Sequence record: PQ306574.1
Reading direction: 5' to 3' (one strand)
DNA from: Escherichia phage vB_EcoM_PTE-Eco09
DNA length: 64,000 nucleotides
Below the pieces are notes generated by a model, which searched no databases, was not told where the DNA came from, and saw nothing but the letters and a program-made list of their open reading frames with translations. Made by a program: the position numbers and the translations under genes. The number at the start of each line of letters is the position of its first letter. Position 1 is the stretch's first letter. Below are positions 18 to 34,991 of this stretch, in pieces.

Positions 18-3000
18 TTAGTCTTCCCAGATAAAGTCTACGGTACGAGTCAGATTATTGGCGATGATTTTAACATTACCAACCTTGATCCAGTCACGAA
101 CCGTCATAGAGTTCATTAAACCACCTTCTGCAACAACTGCCCCGATTTCCTGAGCGGTAGGCTTATTCTGTTTGGTGTAAATTTCACCCCATGCGGTCCA
201 TTGACCACCAGTACCGGAACGGATATAATGTTTATGAGTACCATCAGGGGACCAAAGCTGGGTAAGCCCGTCCGCGTCAGTACCCCATTGCATCAGAGTA
301 CCGTTTTTCTTCTCTGGATAAGTTTCTTTGATGTTCTGGGTAGTAACTCGCATATTCCAGAAACCGATGTTACCGATTGCCGGAGCGGTTGCCGCGCTAG
401 CTTCATGCTTAACAGAAACAATAGGCGCATTATCCATAGTCAGCTTGCCGACCATTGTATCGCCAGCATTCTTAACAAACCGACGGTTAAGAACTTCGTC
501 GGCGTTTCCTGCGTGTACGATCTGATATTTCTGTCCGGCGATCTCTGTAGTTAACGTTTGAGAACCTGCCTTGATGTTAACACTTCCACCGTGACCGATA
601 TTCAGCGTACCATCTGGGGAACGAGTCATTGCCGGATTAGACTGGTCAACAATGTATAAACCGCCTTGTTTCGCATACAGGTTACGACCTGCAATAAAGT
701 CTCTATATGCTGTCGCGTCGCCATTGTGTTTCATAGCAAAGGCGTAATGCTCAACGACTCCACCATCATTGATTTTACCGAAAGAGATAGCATCACTATC
801 AACAACTTGCGCTGTTCCAGTACCACCAACGATAATAGACCAAGAGTTTTTCATTCCTTCCGATGCGGTTGTGCCATGCAGAGTAATTCCGGTGTGACCG
901 TCAACTCCACGATCACCCAACACCAGATGACCATTACTCGGAACATCGGTCGAGTTCTTAGTCACAGACAGAGTTTCAAAGGAACCTGATTTTAAGCACT
1001 CTAAATCGCCCTTCACGTTAACGTTTTTATTAAACGTGTAATTGCTCTCTATGGTCTGATCAATGTCTCTACGCGCCCATTTAGAGGCCTCTACGTTACC
1101 CAATTTCAAACTATTCTGAGCGGTTGCCATCTTAGGTAAGAAATTAGCAAGTGCGTAGTTTAATCCTTTAGGGGTAACAGCAATTCCGTCATGCTGGTAG
1201 TTTCCTAGTTCTTGAGTAGAACCTTGCAGATTATCACCAACAAAACAGTTTTCCTGAGTAGCAACTTTCAAGAATCCACGACGCGCTTCGGTTGCTTTCC
1301 ATGTATCCTCTGTCTGAACAACATATTTGAAGTTCTTCGGAGAAATTGCTACATTGTCCATAATACCAGCCACGGTTTCGGCGTGAGTACCAACTCGGAT
1401 AATACCTTCTTTACCTTCGGTGGCCTTTTTGCCTTGCAGCTTTTTAGGCGTGATGATTGTAGTATCATCTTGACCAGCGTCAGTAAGCTGAGTAGTCGCA
1501 ACTTTAGCGACACCTTTTGTATCTTCGGTTGCATCCAGACCGCTGATCATGATACCTTGCCACAAATCACCAGTAAGGTTAAGCCCCTGAGTCGGATCTA
1601 CTTTCAAACGCTGTGCATTCTCAAAGAAGGTTTTAATCTTCAATGGGGTAGAAATGCGATCATCGTCACGACCTGCGTCAAATTCCGGCTGAGTTGCAAT
1701 TTCTGCTAAACCGTGTAAAGTTTCCGTTGCGCGGCGAGTATGCAACTTTTTAGGCGTGATGATATGGTTATCACTTTGACCTAAGTTTGTTTCTTCCTGA
1801 GTTGCAATTTCAGCGATACCAGTGCGCGATTCGGTAGCAGTACGTTTCGTTAGCGTGCGAGTCGTGATTAGTAAAGCATCTTGCGGGGTTGATTCTGTAG
1901 CCCCTTGCACTTCCGCGTCAGTTGCCAGATAGCCAACACCACGGGAAGTTTCGGTCGCCTTGACTTCGTTGATGTTTTGTGGCGTAACAATTTTAGCATG
2001 GTCGTTGATGTTATAGATCCCTGTACCAGCTTCGCCACGTCGAGCGGCAGCACTACCGCCAACCTGAACAATTTCAGCAATACCAGCGAGATCTTCGGAA
2101 GCGCGACGTTCTTCTAATTTCTTAGGAGTTATTGCGCGAGTATCGTCTAAACCTTCATTGGTTTCGTGCTGGGTTGCAATTTCCATCACACCACGACGGG
2201 CTTCGGTAGCAACACAGTCATTTAACTTTTTGGGTGTAACGATAACATCATCCAGGAAGTTGGAACCAGTATCTTGATGCGTTTCCGCTTGAGTCGCAAT
2301 GCGAGCAATACCGCGTCGAGTTTCGTTGGCTGTTTTATTAGACAGCATTTTTGGTGTTACAGCAACTTCGTCGCTAGGATTCTCTTCATGGTTTTTATTC
2401 GTTTCAGTCTGGGTAGCCAGTGCAATTACACCAACACGATCTTTACGAGTCGGATCTACTCGTTCTACAATCGGGTGAGCATGTGCCACCAACCAGTATT
2501 TCTTACCATCATCACCTTCTGAATAAGAGAACTCCAGATAAGGTACATAATCATTTGCAGCGTTGAAAGACAATTCAGACACTCCAGTCCATGTATCGGT
2601 CCCATTGAATGGGTACTCGCTACGCTTAGGAAACTGAACCATGTTTTTCTGCATAAGGATTTTTGTATCCTCTTCTGAGGTAATGATTCGGCAAGTCTGG
2701 TTTCCGTGCATATACTGCATAGAAACTTGAATACGATCACCCGGCTCGACATTGGTCGGCAGCGTCAGAGTAACATCACGACCACCAAATACAGCAACAT
2801 AGCTATTAGGTTGCAAGCGAGTGTCATTGATGATCGGTTTAAGACGAACAGACTGATCACCATCCCACAAACGCCATAAGTTTTCCGTCTTGTCAAAGAT
2901 GAATACACCATGACCGCTACGCTTACCGATAATCTCTTTTAGACCGGACGTGCCAATTGATTGTTCTTCTGCGTGCTCATGAACTTTAACCGTAACGTGG

Positions 3001-3758
3001 TTGGTTGCGGTTAATCCGTCAAGGTCTGTAGTCTGGATCATGTCGCCATTGTTGGCAAACTTAGGAAGCACTAAGGTAATATTACCCAACGAACTACGAC
3101 GAAATACCTGATCACCATTCTGCATTTGAATAGCATCAATCGCTGGCTGTGCGTACACACCGCGTGGCTCTGTTCCTGTCTGATAAACATGCCAACGATT
3201 ACGAACAAAGATGAAATAGTTCATTGCATACGGGGTAGTGCAATACCATTTTCGGTTGTACACATTACCGTTATGGTAAAACTCATGTCCTGTACTCAAA
3301 AACGATAATTCGTTAACACCACACTTGCCACCGATATCTTTTACTGTTATAGTGTCTCCCTCTGCTGGTTTAGTTGGCATAGAGAAAGTCAAGTTTGCAA
3401 ATTGACCATCTGCTGCGATATAATCACCAGACTGTAAAGGAGTATCACCGGAAGTTGCTGCAATATAATCCCAACGTGGGTCCGTGCGCAGTGCTTGCCA
3501 TTTAGTCGGGTCAAAATCACCTGCTGGCTTTGTGATATCTTCTTTTGCATAATACGGACGGTTTTGATAGATTGTAGTTCCGTATTGATCATAACCGCGA
3601 GTTGTGTCATACTGAGTAATGCCATTATGGTAATTGAAAAATTCAACGTTGACCGCATCCGTTGATGTGTTTTTATCTGCGTATGCTACATTGACGACCT
3701 TTTCATTACCAGCGTCAAAGCCAAATGTGGCCTTGAAATGTTGAGAAAAATCTGCCAT
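18..3758 (-). CDS. 34: long tail fiber proximal subunit (gp34-like)
   Basis: 1246-aa ORF; motifs IGGKxGVN, LPKFANNGD, ENLWRLWDGD, VQFPKRSEYP and C-terminal ...NVKIIANNLTRTVDFIWED match the T4 gp34 pattern as recalled; divergent from rnh as in T4. Confidence 0.85.
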   Translation of the reverse strand: MADFSQHFKATFGFDAGNEKVVNVAYADKNTSTDAVNVEFFNYHNGITQYDTTRGYDQYGTTIYQNRPYYAKEDITKPAGDFDPTKWQALRTDPRWDYIAATSGDTPLQSGDYIAADGQFANLTFSMPTKPAEGDTITVKDIGGKCGVNELSFLSTGHEFYHNGNVYNRKWYCTTPYAMNYFIFVRNRWHVYQTGTEPRGVYAQPAIDAIQMQNGDQVFRRSSLGNITLVLPKFANNGDMIQTTDLDGLTATNHVTVKVHEHAEEQSIGTSGLKEIIGKRSGHGVFIFDKTENLWRLWDGDQSVRLKPIINDTRLQPNSYVAVFGGRDVTLTLPTNVEPGDRIQVSMQYMHGNQTCRIITSEEDTKILMQKNMVQFPKRSEYPFNGTDTWTGVSELSFNAANDYVPYLEFSYSEGDDGKKYWLVAHAHPIVERVDPTRKDRVGVIALATQTETNKNHEENPSDEVAVTPKMLSNKTANETRRGIARIATQAETHQDTGSNFLDDVIVTPKKLNDCVATEARRGVMEIATQHETNEGLDDTRAITPKKLEERRASEDLAGIAEIVQVGGSAAARRGEAGTGIYNINDHAKIVTPQNINEVKATETSRGVGYLATDAEVQGATESTPQDALLITTRTLTKRTATESRTGIAEIATQEETNLGQSDNHIITPKKLHTRRATETLHGLAEIATQPEFDAGRDDDRISTPLKIKTFFENAQRLKVDPTQGLNLTGDLWQGIMISGLDATEDTKGVAKVATTQLTDAGQDDTTIITPKKLQGKKATEGKEGIIRVGTHAETVAGIMDNVAISPKNFKYVVQTEDTWKATEARRGFLKVATQENCFVGDNLQGSTQELGNYQHDGIAVTPKGLNYALANFLPKMATAQNSLKLGNVEASKWARRDIDQTIESNYTFNKNVNVKGDLECLKSGSFETLSVTKNSTDVPSNGHLVLGDRGVDGHTGITLHGTTASEGMKNSWSIIVGGTGTAQVVDSDAISFGKINDGGVVEHYAFAMKHNGDATAYRDFIAGRNLYAKQGGLYIVDQSNPAMTRSPDGTLNIGHGGSVNIKAGSQTLTTEIAGQKYQIVHAGNADEVLNRRFVKNAGDTMVGKLTMDNAPIVSVKHEASAATAPAIGNIGFWNMRVTTQNIKETYPEKKNGTLMQWGTDADGLTQLWSPDGTHKHYIRSGTGGQWTAWGEIYTKQNKPTAQEIGAVVAEGGLMNSMTVRDWIKVGNVKIIANNLTRTVDFIWED

Positions 3759-3792
3759 TATTGGGTCTCCTGTTATAATATGAAATTATTTA

Positions 3793-4374
3793 TTGTGTGA
3801 GGTGTTTGTTGTGGCAAAAACAAAATTTTGGGATATCGAGACACAGAAAGCGATAAAAGGTAGATTCTATCATGTCGATGGAATATTATACCATTTAAAG
3901 GATTCTGTAGCTGCTGGATTCCGAAAAGAAGGGTCCATATACAAAAAAGGTGATGTGGTAAGGGTATGTCTCCATAAAGAAGGATATTTATACTTTACAT
4001 TTTACAACAATGGTCATAAACTTAATCTGTTTGTACATAGAGTTGTCTGGTTTTTAGAGTATGGTACTCAGGTTGAACGAATAGATCACATAGACCAAGA
4101 CAAAACTAACAATAGACCGTCAAACATGAGAGAAGCAACCGAACAGCAAAATCAGTTTAACGTCTCAAAGAAAAAGGCTTGCCATAGCAAATATAAAGGT
4201 GTATCATTATCACCAAGCAAGAAAAAGCCGTGGAAGGCGTATATTGTTATCAATCGAAAGAATATACATCTAGGATACTTTGAGACAGAAGTTGAGGCGG
4301 CTAAGGCTTATGACCGTGCAGCACATGAAATAGTTGGCGAGTATGCTTATTTAAATTTTCCAAAAAGAGGATGA
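3793..4374 (+). CDS. HNH homing-endonuclease-like protein with AP2-type DNA-binding domain
   Basis: HNH-like block (IDHIDQDKTNNRPSNMRE) followed by AP2-like block (KPWKAYIVINRKNIHLGYFETEVEAAKAYDRAA); no in-frame ATG at 5' end, probable TTG/GTG start (3793/3802/3811) after SD GAGGTG. Confidence 0.55.
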   Translation: MCEVFVVAKTKFWDIETQKAIKGRFYHVDGILYHLKDSVAAGFRKEGSIYKKGDVVRVCLHKEGYLYFTFYNNGHKLNLFVHRVVWFLEYGTQVERIDHIDQDKTNNRPSNMREATEQQNQFNVSKKKACHSKYKGVSLSPSKKKPWKAYIVINRKNIHLGYFETEVEAAKAYDRAAHEIVGEYAYLNFPKRG

Positions 4375-29512: not shown

Positions 29513-29541
29513 TTGACACCAGATCACGCCTATAGCATAAT
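29513..29541 (+). promoter_or_regulatory. PeSL-type early promoter
   Basis: TTGACA 29513-29518, 17-bp spacer, CATAAT 29536-29541, conserved leader and SD. Confidence 0.55.
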
Positions 29542-30280: not shown

Positions 30281-30448
30281 ATGTTCCAGACTAAAGCAGA
30301 ATGCGAAGCATATATCATTGAAACCCACGGCGAAGATTATCTGAAATTTGACATTGTAGTAGCACAGAAGATTGTAGGGATGGTTGCGAAATACCTCGGA
30401 GTTAAAGAAGGTTACTATCCTAGCAACGCACCAGAAATTAACAAATAA
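30281..30448 (+). CDS. hypothetical small protein (duplicated family, copy 2)
   Basis: MFQTKAECEAYIIETHGEDYLKFDIVVAQKIVGMVAKYLGVKEGYYPSNAPEINK; differs from 26997 copy at a few residues. Confidence 0.5.
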   Translation: MFQTKAECEAYIIETHGEDYLKFDIVVAQKIVGMVAKYLGVKEGYYPSNAPEINK

Positions 30449-30462
30449 TTTTATAAAAAGTG

Positions 30463-30491
30463 TTGACAGGGGAGGATAACTCCCCTACAAT
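30463..30491 (+). promoter_or_regulatory. PeSL-type early promoter
   Basis: TTGACA, spacer GGGGAGGATAACTCCCC, TACAAT. Confidence 0.55.
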
Positions 30492-30531
30492 ACAACCATC
30501 AAGACGAGATACCACTTAGGAGAATCAAACA

Positions 30532-30783
30532 ATGGCTAACATCGAAACCGCAAAGAAAATCGCTAAAGACCTGAACGTTAAAGGCTTCCGTAAACTGAAA
30601 TTACAGCGTGTACGCTACACCATCGGCAAACAGTGCTCTTTCATGAGCGAAGAAGTTGCTAACAGCCTGATTGATAACCTGATTGCGGCTGGCTGGGAAG
30701 TTGCGGATCTGAAAACTTGCCGCGAACTGGCTAAAAAAGGTCTTTTAGATTCTGTTACTATCAAACCAATGGGGGCAGCGTGA
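30532..30783 (+). CDS. hypothetical protein (first gene of coupled operon)
   Basis: 83-aa ORF after cassette. Confidence 0.45.
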   Translation: MANIETAKKIAKDLNVKGFRKLKLQRVRYTIGKQCSFMSEEVANSLIDNLIAAGWEVADLKTCRELAKKGLLDSVTIKPMGAA

Positions 30784-31025
30784 AAAGAAAATTAATTAAA
30801 CGCAATAAGGAATTTCTTAATAACTGCATTAAGGCCGCTAATGGTTGGCCTTTGTGCCTCTTCCTTTATGATTGGTATTCTAAACAATCAGTTGAGGAAG
30901 CACGACACTATAAGAAGATCAGAAAAGAATCACACACAAAACAAGGTCGCATTAACGGACTTTACTTAATGTGGCACGGTAAAGAACCGACTAAAATCTG
31001 TGCTGGGTTAAAGGGTCGTATATGA
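30780..31025 (+). CDS. hypothetical basic protein
   Basis: 81-aa ORF, GTG start overlapping upstream stop. Confidence 0.35.
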   Translation: MKRKLIKRNKEFLNNCIKAANGWPLCLFLYDWYSKQSVEEARHYKKIRKESHTKQGRINGLYLMWHGKEPTKICAGLKGRI

Positions 31026-31738
31026 AACAAAAATTAATATTCTGCAACTTTGACGGATCGGGAATAATGGGGCTAGAATGGGCTAAAGCAGGTCATAAGG
31101 TAGTCTGCTTTAATGCGGATGACGCCGACCACGGTACATACAAAAAGTATAATACCAGATTTGAACATCCAAACATTACCTATGTAAACACATGGATTGA
31201 TTTGAATTGGCTGGAAAGAGCAATGGACCTTGAATGGGGGAAACCGGATATTATCTTTGCATTCCCACCGTGCACCAATTTAGCTGTTAGTGGCGCTGCG
31301 CACTTTGAACGAAAGAAACTAGAACAAGGACCATTGATTCAAGTTCATGATGTAAGGGCAGCTAAAATAACCGCTTATTTGGGTGAATGGCTAGGAGTTC
31401 CCTACATGATAGAGAATCCTGTAAGCGTTATCTCTAGTATGTGGCGTAAGCCTGATTACATGTTCCATCCGTGGGAATATGGCGGTTATTTGCCGGAAGA
31501 TGATAAACATCCTACTTTTCCTGAGTATATCGCCGCCCGTGATATGTACCCGAAAAAGACTTGCTTATGGACCGGACAAGGCTTTATAATGCCAGAAAAG
31601 AAACCGTTGCAGATTAATAAAGGGTACAGTAAACAGCATTCTAAGCTAGGCGGGAAAGGAACGAAAACAAAGACTATCAGGTCACTTACCCCGCGAGGAT
31701 TCGCAAAGGCAGTATTTGAAGCCAATAAGGATCTATGA
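31022..31738 (+). CDS. short DNA (cytosine-5)-methyltransferase-like protein
   Basis: Motif I-like FCNFDGSG, motif IV-like FPPCTNLAVSGA (PC catalytic dipeptide, T instead of Q), motif VI-like IENPVS; only 238 aa, no obvious target-recognition domain. Confidence 0.5.
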   Translation: MKQKLIFCNFDGSGIMGLEWAKAGHKVVCFNADDADHGTYKKYNTRFEHPNITYVNTWIDLNWLERAMDLEWGKPDIIFAFPPCTNLAVSGAAHFERKKLEQGPLIQVHDVRAAKITAYLGEWLGVPYMIENPVSVISSMWRKPDYMFHPWEYGGYLPEDDKHPTFPEYIAARDMYPKKTCLWTGQGFIMPEKKPLQINKGYSKQHSKLGGKGTKTKTIRSLTPRGFAKAVFEANKDL

Positions 31739-32067
31739 TGAGATTGTTTAAGTATTCGCTAACGTCAAATTACGATAAACAAGGTCATTGCATCCGTTGC
31801 CCTGATTGTCATAGCCATAACATCGAAAGCAAGATCACCGATCATATTGATGGACTTTGGTCGCCAGCAAGTGAAATAGAATACTATTGCGCTGATTGTG
31901 GAATTGTAGTAGCATATTGGGCATACGGATCATATGATCCATACTTCCAGATGGGAGAGCGTTCAATCCCTGCGCTTATCTGGAGAATTAAGAACAATAT
32001 CCGGCATTCATGGGATGAGTTCTTAAAAGATATTGATTTACGTGATGACCCATTCAGGAGACTATAA
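31735..32067 (+). CDS. zinc-ribbon protein
   Basis: CIRCPDCHSHN...CADCG Cys4 arrangement; start overlaps upstream stop (ATGA). Confidence 0.4.
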   Translation: MMRLFKYSLTSNYDKQGHCIRCPDCHSHNIESKITDHIDGLWSPASEIEYYCADCGIVVAYWAYGSYDPYFQMGERSIPALIWRIKNNIRHSWDEFLKDIDLRDDPFRRL

Positions 32068-32068
32068 C

Positions 32069-32587
32069 ATGAACCGTTTAACGCCTAAACGCCGTTACTA
32101 TACCAATACTAAAAACTTTGTCATCTCTGTTTATGATGCATGGTTAGAAGATGGCTATATCAACATGAACCCAGATTATCAGCGTCCTTTAGTATGGGAC
32201 ACCGAAAACAAACGTATGTTTATTGAAAACCTGATTAATGATTTTCCGGTTGGTGCTATCGCAATGGCTAAGATTGATGATGGCTCTCGCTATGAGATCG
32301 AAATCGTGGACGGTAAACAGCGTTTAAACGCAATATTCTCCTTTATGAAGGATGAGTTTAGCATTGCTTGTAATGATGATTCTATGTTGTATTACAGTGA
32401 TTTTACGCCAGCAGAAAAGCGACGTTTCCGAAATCTCGGACTACCCGCGATCATGATGGAAGAGAGCACACGAGAAGACCGATTAGAGTATTTCTACAAA
32501 ACAAACTTTTTCGGTGTACCTCAATCGGAAGAACATCGCCAGCATGTGATTGCATTATTGCAAGATGAACAATTAAAAAATAACTAA
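32069..32587 (+). CDS. DUF262 / ParB-like nucleotide-binding domain protein
   Basis: NPDYQRPLVW and VDGKQRL (DGQQR-type) motifs typical of DUF262/ParB-Srx fold; ATG 1 nt after upstream stop. Confidence 0.5.
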   Translation: MNRLTPKRRYYTNTKNFVISVYDAWLEDGYINMNPDYQRPLVWDTENKRMFIENLINDFPVGAIAMAKIDDGSRYEIEIVDGKQRLNAIFSFMKDEFSIACNDDSMLYYSDFTPAEKRRFRNLGLPAIMMEESTREDRLEYFYKTNFFGVPQSEEHRQHVIALLQDEQLKNN

Positions 32588-32594
32588 AAAGTTG

Positions 32595-32623
32595 TTGACA
32601 GGGGATCGGTGATCCCCTATAAT
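32595..32623 (+). promoter_or_regulatory. PeSL-type early promoter
   Basis: TTGACA, spacer GGGGATCGGTGATCCCC (identical to 26546 copy), TATAAT. Confidence 0.6.
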
Positions 32624-32659
32624 GCACACATACCGAAACGAACTACTAAGGAGTATCAA

Positions 32660-32872
32660 ATGGCTAACATCGAAATCATCATTACCGACGTAACTTATGA
32701 CCGCATTAACGAAATCGGTACTGCATTACTGGAAGATGGAACAACTCGTACCATCAACTACGCAGAATACGTTGAAATGCGTGGTTGTATTAAACGAGTA
32801 GGAAAATATATCCTGATTGAAAAAGACTATTCAGGATACACCTTAGAGCAATTGCTTGATGGTGCATTATAA
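32660..32872 (+). CDS. hypothetical small protein
   Basis: 70-aa ORF (MANIEIIITDVTYDRINEIG...) after cassette; followed by terminator. Confidence 0.4.
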   Translation: MANIEIIITDVTYDRINEIGTALLEDGTTRTINYAEYVEMRGCIKRVGKYILIEKDYSGYTLEQLLDGAL

Positions 32873-32939: not shown

Positions 32940-34991
32940 ATGTTTAACTTAGAAATCGACGATCTAATGATTGAATCTTTCGAGAAATGGCTGTTGACGG
33001 AAGAGGAAGAAAACTTTGGCAGTATTGCTCCTGTACAGTGCTTAAAGCCTAAGCAGAATCCTAAACAGCTTTTTGCAGTACAGACACGCGATAAAGATGT
33101 GATTGTCCGTCTTTGCAACTTCACCAACAAAACACCTAAAATCATTCGTATGGGTGACAAGACCGCACATGTTGTACTGTGCGAAATGAACAAAAGCGGT
33201 CGTATTGTACAGCTTAAAAATGGTCTAGGCGATAACCCGATTGCAGTTATGTCAAGTGCTTTTGATGTGGTTATGGAAACAGCCCGTAAAGCGCAATTAG
33301 ACGCTGTTATGTTCCGTTTTAACGTATCCCGCATGAAAGGTAAGACCGAACTGGTTAAGCGCGTTATAGAGCGTTTGGTGCGTCGTACACCGAAGTTTGA
33401 AGTATTCCAGCAGGAAGTAATGACCAGCAAAAAGATCGCTTTAGTTGTTGTCAAGCGTCGCGGTATGGCGATTGATAAGATTAAAGGGATTAAACTTGAT
33501 GATTCCTTGTTCACTAAAGTAGAAAGTGATTTAGGTGATCGCTGGGTATCTAAGGCTACTGGTGAATCTCTGACTAAAGATGAGGCATATGCGGCTAGTC
33601 TTGTGTCAGAAGAAGAACGAAACGCGGAAGCGGAACAACGCGTAGCGGCTAAATCTCGTTTGACTAAAGAAGAAATGCTGAAAACTCAAGCGACCTATAA
33701 CAGCGACTATGTGAATCATCCAGAAAAAATTAATCTTAAACCGGAAGAAGATATCACCGAAGCCGAACCTAAGAAACAGTTTAATACTCTGATTGATCGT
33801 CAAGCCTTAGAACGTTCAACCGCCCGTTCTCTGAATGACTGGACAAGTGATATTATCACTCGCTATGGTTTCATGCGTACTATTTTTGAAAGCGAAGCCG
33901 ATGCAAAATACGCAGTAAGCGAACTGGTAAAAGTTCAGGATCAATATGATCCGTTGTCTGCGGAAGTTATCGCAGCATCAATCAAACGCTTAAAAGAAAT
34001 CATGAGCGAGGAAGTATTCGAAAACAAGATCACCGCCCGGGCAATGGATCGAGTAGACCAGTCTATGCCAGCAGATGTAAAAGCTGAAATGCTGCGTAGT
34101 CATATCACCCAGATTAAAACCGATGCCCTACGTAATGTTGCGTCCGGTATGTTTGAAGCAATTGCTAGCAACATGGGTGAAATGATGGCAGATATTGATC
34201 TTGATCTGCCAGGCGCGGAAGGTTTTGTGTTGAGCGAATATGCCGATGCAGCATACATCAATATGAACAACTTCCTAACTGATCGTAAGCTGGAAGAGTT
34301 TGAAGGCATCGCAGATCCAGAAGAATTGGTCAAGATGTGCGATGCACTGGATAATGCCTTCTCCAACTATGGCGTTAAACTTGATCCGGGTACTATTCTG
34401 TATCGTGGTATGGACTTCCGGTCGCAAATGTGGGAAACTGCACGTAAGCAAAAAGCGTTTTACTTTAAAAACTATGTGAGCACTTCCCTTGCACCTAACA
34501 TTTTTGGCGGCTGGAATGCAAACGTGGCTAGTGCCGTTGCTGGTGTTGATTCTATGGCTGGCTCTCGCGGTGAAGGTGGCGCTAATGTTGCTTTCTCCAT
34601 TGCTGGCGCGGAAAACATCCCTGTATTGCCAGTAGGTAACAAAGCATTTGCTTACAAAGAATGCGAGATTTTACTTCCTCGCGGTGTTGTGTTATCCTTT
34701 GATACGGTAACTCGTGCTACGGCATCGACGGATTCACAAGAAACTTATTACATTGAGGCACATATTATGAACAAAAATGAACTGGCAGCATTACAAGAAT
34801 CTGGCGAGATGATCGCGGACGGTGATGCATTCATCCGTGAAGGTGTTATTAAACCTGCTTCTGACCTGTCTTTCTCCAGCTTTATTACCGAAGCTAAAAC
34901 CGAACGTAAGAAAGCAGATAAGGCAACTCTACGTCAGCTTATCGCTGATCTGGTATCTGTAGACGCAATGCCAGATAAATTTAAAATGTAA
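32940..34991 (+). CDS. alt: ADP-ribosyltransferase Alt-like
   Basis: 683 aa (T4 Alt about 682); C-terminal ART triad R (LYRGMDFR), STS (YVSTSL), ExE (KECEILLPRG); position next to baseplate gene 54. Confidence 0.8.
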   Translation: MFNLEIDDLMIESFEKWLLTEEEENFGSIAPVQCLKPKQNPKQLFAVQTRDKDVIVRLCNFTNKTPKIIRMGDKTAHVVLCEMNKSGRIVQLKNGLGDNPIAVMSSAFDVVMETARKAQLDAVMFRFNVSRMKGKTELVKRVIERLVRRTPKFEVFQQEVMTSKKIALVVVKRRGMAIDKIKGIKLDDSLFTKVESDLGDRWVSKATGESLTKDEAYAASLVSEEERNAEAEQRVAAKSRLTKEEMLKTQATYNSDYVNHPEKINLKPEEDITEAEPKKQFNTLIDRQALERSTARSLNDWTSDIITRYGFMRTIFESEADAKYAVSELVKVQDQYDPLSAEVIAASIKRLKEIMSEEVFENKITARAMDRVDQSMPADVKAEMLRSHITQIKTDALRNVASGMFEAIASNMGEMMADIDLDLPGAEGFVLSEYADAAYINMNNFLTDRKLEEFEGIADPEELVKMCDALDNAFSNYGVKLDPGTILYRGMDFRSQMWETARKQKAFYFKNYVSTSLAPNIFGGWNANVASAVAGVDSMAGSRGEGGANVAFSIAGAENIPVLPVGNKAFAYKECEILLPRGVVLSFDTVTRATASTDSQETYYIEAHIMNKNELAALQESGEMIADGDAFIREGVIKPASDLSFSSFITEAKTERKKADKATLRQLIADLVSVDAMPDKFKM

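Follow-up and report, generated by a model that had tools for sequence, protein, structure and literature searches.

Escherichia phage vB_EcoM_PTE-Eco09 carries, within a 64,000-nucleotide stretch of its genome (PQ306574.1; hereafter the window), a block of five small genes at positions 30463-32587. The open reading frames (ORFs) of this block lie downstream of a promoter-early stem-loop (PeSL) and include a putative short C5-cytosine DNA methyltransferase (ORF3), a zinc-ribbon protein (ORF4) and a ParB-DUF262 domain (ORF5). A preliminary description of the sequence had proposed that such a combination could be a DNA or nucleotide modification module or an anti-restriction module. The block is instead probably one PeSL-bounded early unit of independent accessory cargo, which includes a short Dcm of the K42/KarlJaspers type and does not form a single machine. 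The observations are those expected of a PeSL cassette in which unrelated cargo has built up, and not of a co-evolving module. Krischvirus is the genus of T4-type, RB49-like coliphages, and positions 30400-32650 are 97-99.6% identical to 56 Krischvirus genomes, including RB49, Phi1, GEC-3S, JSE and TB34.

Outside this genus, the genes were not found as neighbors. Loci from IMG/VR were anchored on relatives of ORF3, ORF4 or ORF5, and 5 kb on either side were searched with family hidden Markov models and tblastn. None of the 193 non-Krischvirus loci had a second block member within 5 kb: this holds for 0 of 79 loci anchored on the methyltransferase (80 loci in total, one from Krischvirus), 0 of 36 anchored on the zinc ribbon (38 loci, two from Krischvirus) and 0 of 78 anchored on the short DUF262 protein (80 loci, two from Krischvirus). 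Further methyltransferase loci likewise showed no second block component (0 of 5). On direct inspection, the methyltransferase relative stands alone in SSE121, in Phagiculus (between tail genes), in a 151-kb metagenomic phage and in KarlJaspers, and the DUF262 relative stands alone in Slopekvirus and Pseudotevenvirus. An ORF of about 108 amino acids upstream of DUF262 in the latter two genera was considered as an ORF4 homologue and rejected, as it has no cysteines and is unrelated in sequence. When neighboring genes were clustered across 24 short-DUF262 lineages, no family was common to more than three of them.

The five genes also have five different phage distributions, and the block is plastic within the genus. 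In an IMG/VR Krischvirus contig (L011, positions 3727-3957), ORF2 is absent, ORF1 is a chimera whose N-terminus is new and ORF3 starts with GTG, while in phage FL04 (L132, positions 1971-2150) an extra 59-amino-acid ORF lies between ORF4 and ORF5 and overlaps its neighbors through start and stop codons. Both variants are consistent with PeSL-mediated shuffling of the kind described for RB49/phi1 cassettes. Genes that are never neighbors outside Krischvirus in the loci searched offer no grounds for a new multi-gene system, and the absence of linkage, the differing distributions and the plasticity within the genus speak against the proposed five-gene modification or anti-restriction module.

The arrangement of the genes does not alter this picture. 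The preliminary description had five ORFs chained by overlapping stop and start codons after one PeSL; the promoter, the ORFs and three overlaps (GTGA at 30780, ATGA at 31022 and ATGA at 31735) are as described, but the fourth junction is not an overlap, since the TAA of ORF4 ends at 32067 and the ATG of ORF5 begins at 32069, leaving a 1-nucleotide spacer with AGGAG upstream. The window contains 38 tight start/stop junctions, and four to five genes are likewise chained near 13.1-15.3 kb and 21.1-22.5 kb; such junctions being genome-wide, the chaining is no evidence for functional coupling. Within Krischvirus, the pooled ratios of nonsynonymous to synonymous polymorphism (pN/pS) for ORF1 to ORF5 are 0.41, 0.22, 0.06, 0.07 and 0.06, and all five ORFs behave as real genes.

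The limits of the unit are given by PeSL elements. In RB49 and phi1, a PeSL consists of a strong sigma-70 promoter and a stem-loop that ends upstream transcription, and termination by these stem-loops has been shown; PeSLs lie in hyperplastic regions where non-essential ORFans abound, and through recombination they drive the shuffling of modules (PMC2839356). A promoter scan found five copies, at 29513, 29860, 30218, 30463 and 32595, with scores of 11-12 out of 12, and the copy that heads the block matches the consensus at 11 of 12 positions. The elements thus have a sigma-70 consensus promoter with a G/C stem-loop and are repeated through a hyperplastic region. Between 30491 and 32595, the consensus scan found no comparable promoter and no convincing terminator. 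In GEC-3S, the site homologous to the 30463 PeSL carries a promoter annotation, and the homologous stretch is annotated with five coding sequences flanked by two promoters, with an Alt-like ADP-ribosyltransferase slightly further downstream. By analogy with RB49 and phi1, the stem-loop at 32601-32617 likely terminates or attenuates the five-gene transcript, and it lies within the promoter of the next cassette. Like the PeSL and ORFan cassettes of those phages (PMC2839356; PMC4122927), the present cassette combines a sigma-70 consensus promoter with a GGGG...CCCC stem-loop and holds non-essential accessory genes in a hyperplastic region; however, the RB49/phi1 cassettes hold a single ORFan, whereas this one holds five genes.

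ORF1 (30532-30546) and the opening ORF of the cassette that follows (32660-32674) begin with the same five codons (MANIE), which suggests that the conserved PeSL unit includes the ribosome-binding site and reaches as far as the initial codons. Separately, an apparent match in two pieces in ELT3 and ELT4 was considered as an insertion and rejected, as it came from a PeSL repeat that matches further upstream.

Judged from its sequence and predicted structure, ORF3 is a genuine C5-cytosine methyltransferase of a short phage Dcm family that is already characterized through phage K42. The motifs I, IV (with PCT) and VI that had been noticed in the sequence are all present and invariant in an alignment of 41 homologues: F10, G12, S13 and G14 of the S-adenosylmethionine (SAM)-binding motif I (FxGxG; F10-D-G12-S13-G14), motif IV with the catalytic cysteine (P82-P83-C84-T85) and motif VI (E131-N132-P133). 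A C-terminal motif (IRSLTPRGFA) is likewise invariant at K217-x-I219-R220-S221-L222-x-x-R225-G226 and nearly so at T223 and P224. ORF3 matches PHROG 757, "DNA methyltransferase" (E = 3.2e-90), and its family comprises 7315 proteins, nearly all of about 230 amino acids, and 1520 phage records. The AlphaFold model of ORF3 (predicted local distance difference test [pLDDT] score of 92.4) has the three-dimensional fold of C5-methyltransferases; the best 14 Foldseek matches are catalytic domains of DNMT3A and DNMT3B, down to E = 6e-8, and M.HhaI and M.HaeIII are also among the best structural matches. Only about 87 residues, mostly loops in the model, separate E131 from R220. The region available for target recognition is therefore minimal, resembling that of DNMT3A/3B, and the earlier remark that this 238-amino-acid protein has no obvious target-recognition domain is borne out, no large variable domain of the kind that sits between motifs VIII and IX being present.

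The link to a characterized enzyme comes through KarlJaspers (Bas06, a phage of the BASEL collection), which encodes a 236-amino-acid "Dcm-like C5 cytosine methyltransferase" with 55% identity to ORF3 over its full length (BLASTP, E = 9e-93). Phage K42, with a genome 95% identical to that of KarlJaspers, has a 711-bp dcm gene that is hit by mutations allowing escape from retron Ec86, and Dcm is the Ec86 trigger; expression of K42 Dcm, which works alone from a plasmid, raises 5-methylcytosine (5mC) in multicopy single-stranded DNA (msDNA) as measured by liquid chromatography-mass spectrometry, and a C82A/E128A/K175A/K176A mutant is inactive (bioRxiv 10.1101/2023.08.16.553469). These four residues correspond to C84, E131, K178 and K179 of ORF3, as read from an alignment to KarlJaspers Dcm rather than to the K42 protein itself. 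The preliminary description had not recognized the combination of genes as a described system, which no longer applies to ORF3, whose family is known through K42 Dcm. The CCWGG target of K42 Dcm was assumed from the host Dcm, with mutation of the motif in msDNA as its sole support (bioRxiv 10.1101/2023.08.16.553469), and a literature search for a mapped target motif in the short phage Dcm family found none.

ORF3 and the K42/KarlJaspers enzyme are alike in family, size (238 versus 236 amino acids), the four residues and a predicted DNMT3A-like fold, and each is a stand-alone orphan gene of a phage early region. However, KarlJaspers and K42 are Drexlerviridae siphoviruses with unrelated neighbor genes, whereas ORF3 resides in a T4-type myovirus, and Ec86 triggering and 5mC activity belong to K42 Dcm, whereas ORF3 is known here from sequence and model. 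Compared with E. coli Dcm/M.EcoRII, M.HhaI and M.HaeIII (PF00145), ORF3 likewise has a class I SAM-dependent methyltransferase fold with FxGxG, PC and ENx motifs, but it is about 90-240 residues shorter than canonical bacterial C5-methyltransferases, lacks their large target-recognition domain and has PCT and ENP in place of PCQ and ENV. The similarity to the catalytic domain of DNMT3A/DNMT3B, at 13-17% identity, implies no evolutionary closeness, and these eukaryotic enzymes, unlike ORF3, have regulatory domains and assemble into tetramers with DNMT3L.

Published DNA chemistry bears on what ORF3 may do in the phage. TB34 DNA has no modified nucleoside detectable by high-performance liquid chromatography (HPLC)/mass spectrometry (PMC13390438), and the ORF3 of TB34 is intact, 97% identical and has kept all catalytic residues. 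RB49 DNA contains neither 5-hydroxymethylcytosine (hmC) nor its glucosylated form (ghmC), and HpaII and NheI, both sensitive to 5mC, cut it (PMC4041780). ORF3 is therefore no bulk or low-specificity modifier, and bulk DNA modification by the block is unlikely. Action on a rare motif would agree with these data: CCWGG occurs at only 20 sites in the window, and by our estimate, methylation of CCWGG would convert far less than one percent of cytosines to 5mC, an amount that HPLC could easily miss. A role in DNA methylation and anti-restriction is the best reading for ORF3.

Under this reading, host sigma-70 RNA polymerase would start at 30463-30491 soon after infection and read the five genes until the stem-loop of the next PeSL ended the transcript, as the RB49 and phi1 elements would lead one to expect (PMC2839356). 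By means of SAM and Cys84, ORF3 would most likely methylate a short, rare motif to give 5mC, with CCWGG as the candidate, in replicating phage DNA and most likely in host DNA as well. This 5mC could protect progeny from a cognate type II enzyme regardless of host dcm status; E. coli B, the classical host of RB49, is dcm-. As a side effect, ORF3 may, like K42 Dcm, trigger retron Ec86-type defenses. For ORF5, a low-confidence guess is that it might compete for a substrate or partner of GmrSD/BrxU rather than cut DNA.

Apart from any methylation, the window is depleted of many restriction sites. TCCGGA (50 expected on both strands), AAGCTT (32), GAATTC (36), AGCGCT (26), CCGCGG (25), GGATCC (24), ACCGGT (21), AGTACT (19) and CAGCTG (18) have no copy at all, CTGAAG has one copy where 29 are expected, and the observed-to-expected (O/E) ratio is 0.28 for GGCC (z -9.7) and 0.24 for CCAAG/CTTGG. 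On this sequence evidence, site avoidance looks like the main anti-restriction strategy of the phage.

Two observations weigh against reading the block as independent cargo with ORF3 as a protective methyltransferase. First, CCWGG is itself depleted, with 73 sites expected in the window (O/E 0.28). Such depletion is unexpected under full methyl-protection, which makes the target motif of ORF3 uncertain; the target may be other than CCWGG, or avoidance may be layered with methylation. Deamination of 5mC was rejected as the cause, since CTAGG has an O/E of 1.17 but CTTGG, as noted, is itself depleted. Second, every one of the 56 Krischvirus records contains all three of ORF3, ORF4 and ORF5, and each of these genes has a pN/pS of 0.06-0.07.

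The second observation bears on the view that ORF3-ORF5 form a Krischvirus-specific module, in which the methyltransferase would write 5mC and the ParB-DUF262 protein, with or without the zinc ribbon, would load or target the methyltransferase on DNA, as in fusions of ParB and methyltransferase from mobile elements, or would serve as a nuclease-less decoy that shields DNA newly marked with 5mC from type IV enzymes like GmrSD and BrxU. Constant adjacency with translational coupling in 56 genomes and strong purifying selection on all three genes would suit such a module, as would the intact DUF262 motifs I-III of ORF5, which point to a probably active domain, and the existence of nuclease-less GmrS-type partners in two-gene type IV systems (PMC12373910). 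A second phage clade also pairs a methyltransferase with this family: in Erwinia pEp_SNUABM_01-like contigs, a short DUF262 gene is preceded, at a distance of about 1 kb, by the gene for a 227-amino-acid methyltransferase of the NPPY (N6A/N4C) type, with three to four small ORFs between (L033, positions 3306-3989; also L037, L042, L043 and L045). By our estimate, however, two methyltransferase-DUF262 neighborhoods in 24 lineages are about what chance would give in phage early regions. Moreover, the methyltransferase family spans its 1520 phage records with no DUF262 or zinc-ribbon relative within 5 kb at any of the 79 sampled non-Krischvirus loci, the other anchored loci show no co-occurrence outside the genus either, FL04 tolerates a gene inserted between ORF4 and ORF5, and the K42 enzyme needs no partner when expressed from a plasmid. 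A dedicated module is accordingly unlikely, and independent cargo in a shared PeSL unit remains the preferred reading. Proteins that fuse a ParB domain to a DNA methyltransferase, known from work on polyvalent anti-restriction proteins, exist in phages and plasmids as single polypeptides, usually pairing an N6/N4 methyltransferase with a ParBc domain. The block likewise brings a ParB-superfamily domain and a DNA methyltransferase together in a mobile element, but here they are two separate genes, a C5-methyltransferase and a DUF262-type protein, with no conserved linkage.

ORF5 is probably an active, NTP-binding ParB-DUF262 domain that has neither the ParBDB domain nor a nuclease. It matches Pfam GmrSD_N/DUF262 (PF03235) above the cut-off (E = 5.9e-20) and has no second Pfam domain, so the DUF262/ParB-like assignment made from a DGQQR-type motif, which reads DGKQR at residues 81-85, stands and the motifs are not spurious. 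The three DUF262 motifs are QRxxxW, DGxQR and FxxxN (PMC12065111); in the short family they are invariant as Q38-R39-P-L-V-W43, D81-G-K-Q-R85 and F142-Y-K-T-N146, with an equally invariant GVPQSEEH tail after motif III. The AlphaFold2 model (pLDDT 93.1) is a single domain in which the DUF262 core is followed by one C-terminal helix, residues 154-171. Foldseek matches it to ParB, Noc, PadC and BrxU (probability 1.0, TM 0.42-0.52, but E of only 1e-3 to 1e-2), and further fold matches are sulfiredoxin (Srx), SspE and Osa. In PADLOC, the DUF262 part alone matches NsnA of Menshen (6e-20), PD-T4-2_A (5e-12) and other defense proteins. Neither Pfam nor the model revealed a DUF1524/HNH nuclease domain, no nuclease gene is adjacent, and the model contains no middle helical ParBDB DNA-binding domain as defined in PMC12065111.

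Relatives of about 170 amino acids were found in 326 phage records, among them Slopekvirus, Pseudotevenvirus and ST64B-like prophages; among database proteins, they number 2868. Many metagenomic relatives (P0127, P0157, P0162, P0212 and others) are longer, at about 260-298 amino acids, owing to an N-terminal extension of 125-155 residues that has no Pfam match in relatives of about 285 amino acids. A literature search found no described function for the short DUF262 proteins of phages.

With the type IV enzymes GmrSD and BrxU, ORF5 shares the N-terminal DUF262/ParB_n domain and the three motifs, and BrxU is among its fold matches. It differs from them in having no DUF1524/HNH or ParBDB domain, no adjacent GmrD or GmrSD gene and, in motif II, a K replacing the Q of GmrSD/BrxU-type proteins, as well as in belonging to a lytic phage with, to judge from the promoter, early expression. 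GmrS1 of ECOR17 is likewise nuclease-less (PMC12373910), and GmrS of CT596 is another GmrS-only partner. The best PADLOC matches, NsnA and PD-T4-2_A, are proteins of 363-385 amino acids with extra domains and partner genes. The Menshen order of NsnA, the ABC ATPase NsnB and the effector NsnC is absent, since the gene after ORF5 begins a new PeSL cassette, and neighbor clustering over the 24 lineages found no NsnB or NsnC partner near ORF5 or its short-DUF262 relatives.

Interference by ORF5 with host DUF262-type sensors of modified DNA, such as GmrSD and BrxU, is a guess that can be offered with low confidence. In its more general form, which is rather unlikely, the short DUF262 family would be a new kind of anti-defense factor, a nuclease-less mimic of the sensor domain of GmrSD, BrxU, Menshen or SspE, kept beside the methyltransferase as a counter to type IV restriction. 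If this were true, ORF5 would poison or out-compete these host systems, and its retention next to the C5-methyltransferase in Krischvirus would be explained by the phage's own 5mC, which without ORF5 would leave the phage open to type IV restriction.

Less probable again is that ORF5 serves as the sensor half of an exclusion system, binding the hmC or glucosyl-hmC DNA of T-even competitors and recruiting a nuclease encoded elsewhere; if true, it would protect the unmodified-cytosine Krischvirus from co-infecting phages. DUF262 domains do sense modified DNA in GmrSD and SspE (PMC12065111), GmrSD2 of ECOR17 has as its partner a GmrS1 made up of ParB_n only (PMC12373910), the best defense models matched by ORF5 are NsnA and PD-T4-2_A, and the relatives of ORF5 in T4-like phages are found in Krischvirus, Slopekvirus and Pseudotevenvirus, genera other than Tequatrovirus and Mosigvirus. 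However, the neighborhoods of the 24 short-DUF262 lineages contain neither a nuclease nor a conserved partner, ORF5 lacks the ParBDB domain found in GmrSD, SspE and NsnA, and the His and Asp residues that an HNH nuclease would require are not conserved in ORF4, which is therefore no such enzyme. An unrelated NTPase role for ORF5 is a further alternative.

That the block is a cytosine hypermodification pathway of Krischvirus is largely refuted and highly improbable. Such a pathway was invoked for phage SAP, which is 99.96% identical to TB34 and was reported to contain 5-hydroxymethyldeoxycytidine (5-hmdC) and gentiobiosyl-methyl-deoxycytidine (gentiobiosyl-methyl-dC) without known synthase or glycosyltransferase genes, its pathway being called unknown (PMC13390438). 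The block and its promoter, 2160 bp, are nevertheless 100% identical in SAP (L134, positions 1991-4150) and the unmodified TB34 (L133, positions 702-2861), and the block thus cannot explain the difference between the two phages. Furthermore, RB49 DNA is free of hmC and ghmC and open to HpaII and NheI, the K42 homologue makes plain 5mC, and searches of Pfam, PHROG and NCBIfam found no glycosyltransferase, TET protein or kinase in the block. The modification profile of SAP equals that of seven Tequatrovirus phages of the same collection (PMC13390438), and this equality suggests to us that a mixed stock is possible. The nucleotide modification or hypermodification role considered in the preliminary description is therefore contradicted by the published chemistry of TB34, which carries the same genes.

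Finally, the idea that ORF3 is an unrelated Rossmann-fold enzyme with spurious methyltransferase-like motifs, which might draw on its sub-threshold match to Pfam DNA_methylase (PF00145; 14.6 bits against a gathering cut-off of 22, over residues 10-93 and motifs I-IV only) and on the absence of matches in NCBIfam (none for ORF1, ORF2, ORF3 or ORF5) and of meaningful sequence matches among PDB chains (for ORF3 or ORF5), has a negligible chance of being right and is ruled out by the fold, by the catalytic Cys, the Glu and the RxxTPR-like C-terminal motif that are invariant across the family, and by the 55%-identical KarlJaspers homologue, whose K42 counterpart has experimental 5mC activity.

The remaining genes of the block add cargo of narrower or broader distribution. 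ORF4 was confirmed as the zinc-ribbon protein of the block by an alignment in which the ribbon C22xxC25...C52xxC55 is accompanied by other invariant positions (R21, C22, C25, E47, C52, C55, W62-A-Y-G65 and P69), by PHROG 2993 (5e-34) and by a weak match to Pfam Zn_Ribbon_TF. Its relatives form 168 cluster representatives, almost all stand-alone proteins of 55-145 amino acids, and occur in Queuovirinae, Felixounavirus, Jedunavirus and others; a search of 1.84 billion proteins yielded no informative ORF4 domain fusion. A CxxC...DH...CxxC pattern had made ORF4 a candidate HNH nuclease partner of ORF5, but this was rejected because only the four cysteines, R21, E47 and WAYG...P are conserved. ORF1 belongs to PHROG 14908 and is found in 56 phage records, all Krischvirus. 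ORF2 belongs to PHROG 7065, with 171 phage records that include T5-like phages, Dhakavirus and Karamvirus, and is more variable within Krischvirus than its neighbors (88-99% versus 96-100% amino-acid identity). As a side observation, ORF1 weakly matches positions 722-785 of 938 of the PADLOC model RT_UG35, a defense-associated reverse transcriptase (E = 2.9e-5); the match may reflect a small domain in common or have arisen by chance. Further downstream, a 683-amino-acid ORF at 32940-34991 corresponds to the Alt-like RNA polymerase ADP-ribosyltransferase as annotated in GEC-3S and TB34, and it marks the end of the hyperplastic region.

Table 1. Genes and PeSL elements of the five-gene block; coordinates refer to the window.
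Feature	Position	Strand	Description
PeSL early promoter	30463-30491	+	-35 TTGACA 30463-30468; -10 TACAAT 30486-30491
PeSL stem-loop in promoter spacer	30469-30485	+	GGGGAG-gataa-CTCCCC
ORF1	30532-30783	+	83 amino acids; Shine-Dalgarno AGGAG 30518-30522
ORF2	30780-31025	+	81 amino acids; GTG start; basic small protein
ORF3	31022-31738	+	238 amino acids; predicted short orphan C5-cytosine DNA methyltransferase, K42/KarlJaspers "Dcm" family
ORF4	31735-32067	+	110 amino acids; four-cysteine zinc ribbon
ORF5	32069-32587	+	172 amino acids; stand-alone ParB-DUF262 NTPase-type domain
Next PeSL	32595-32623	+	12/12 promoter match; stem-loop GGGGATC-ggt-GATCCCC 32601-32617

For the biology of these phages, a false lead is cleared: methyltransferase, zinc ribbon and ParB-like protein make an attractive set, but one that probably arose by modular shuffling in a hyperplastic region and not as a new modification system. 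The identity of the block in SAP and TB34 removes it from the candidates for the modification of SAP. The short stand-alone DUF262 family is well defined, with NTP-binding motifs intact and no conserved partner, and is worth a targeted anti-defense screen. Krischvirus, usually treated as phages of unmodified DNA, carry an intact member of the short Dcm family. ORF3 predicts sparse 5mC and a possible sensitivity to Ec86-type retrons and to 5mC-dependent type IV enzymes, a predicted sensitivity that matters for the host range of therapy phages.

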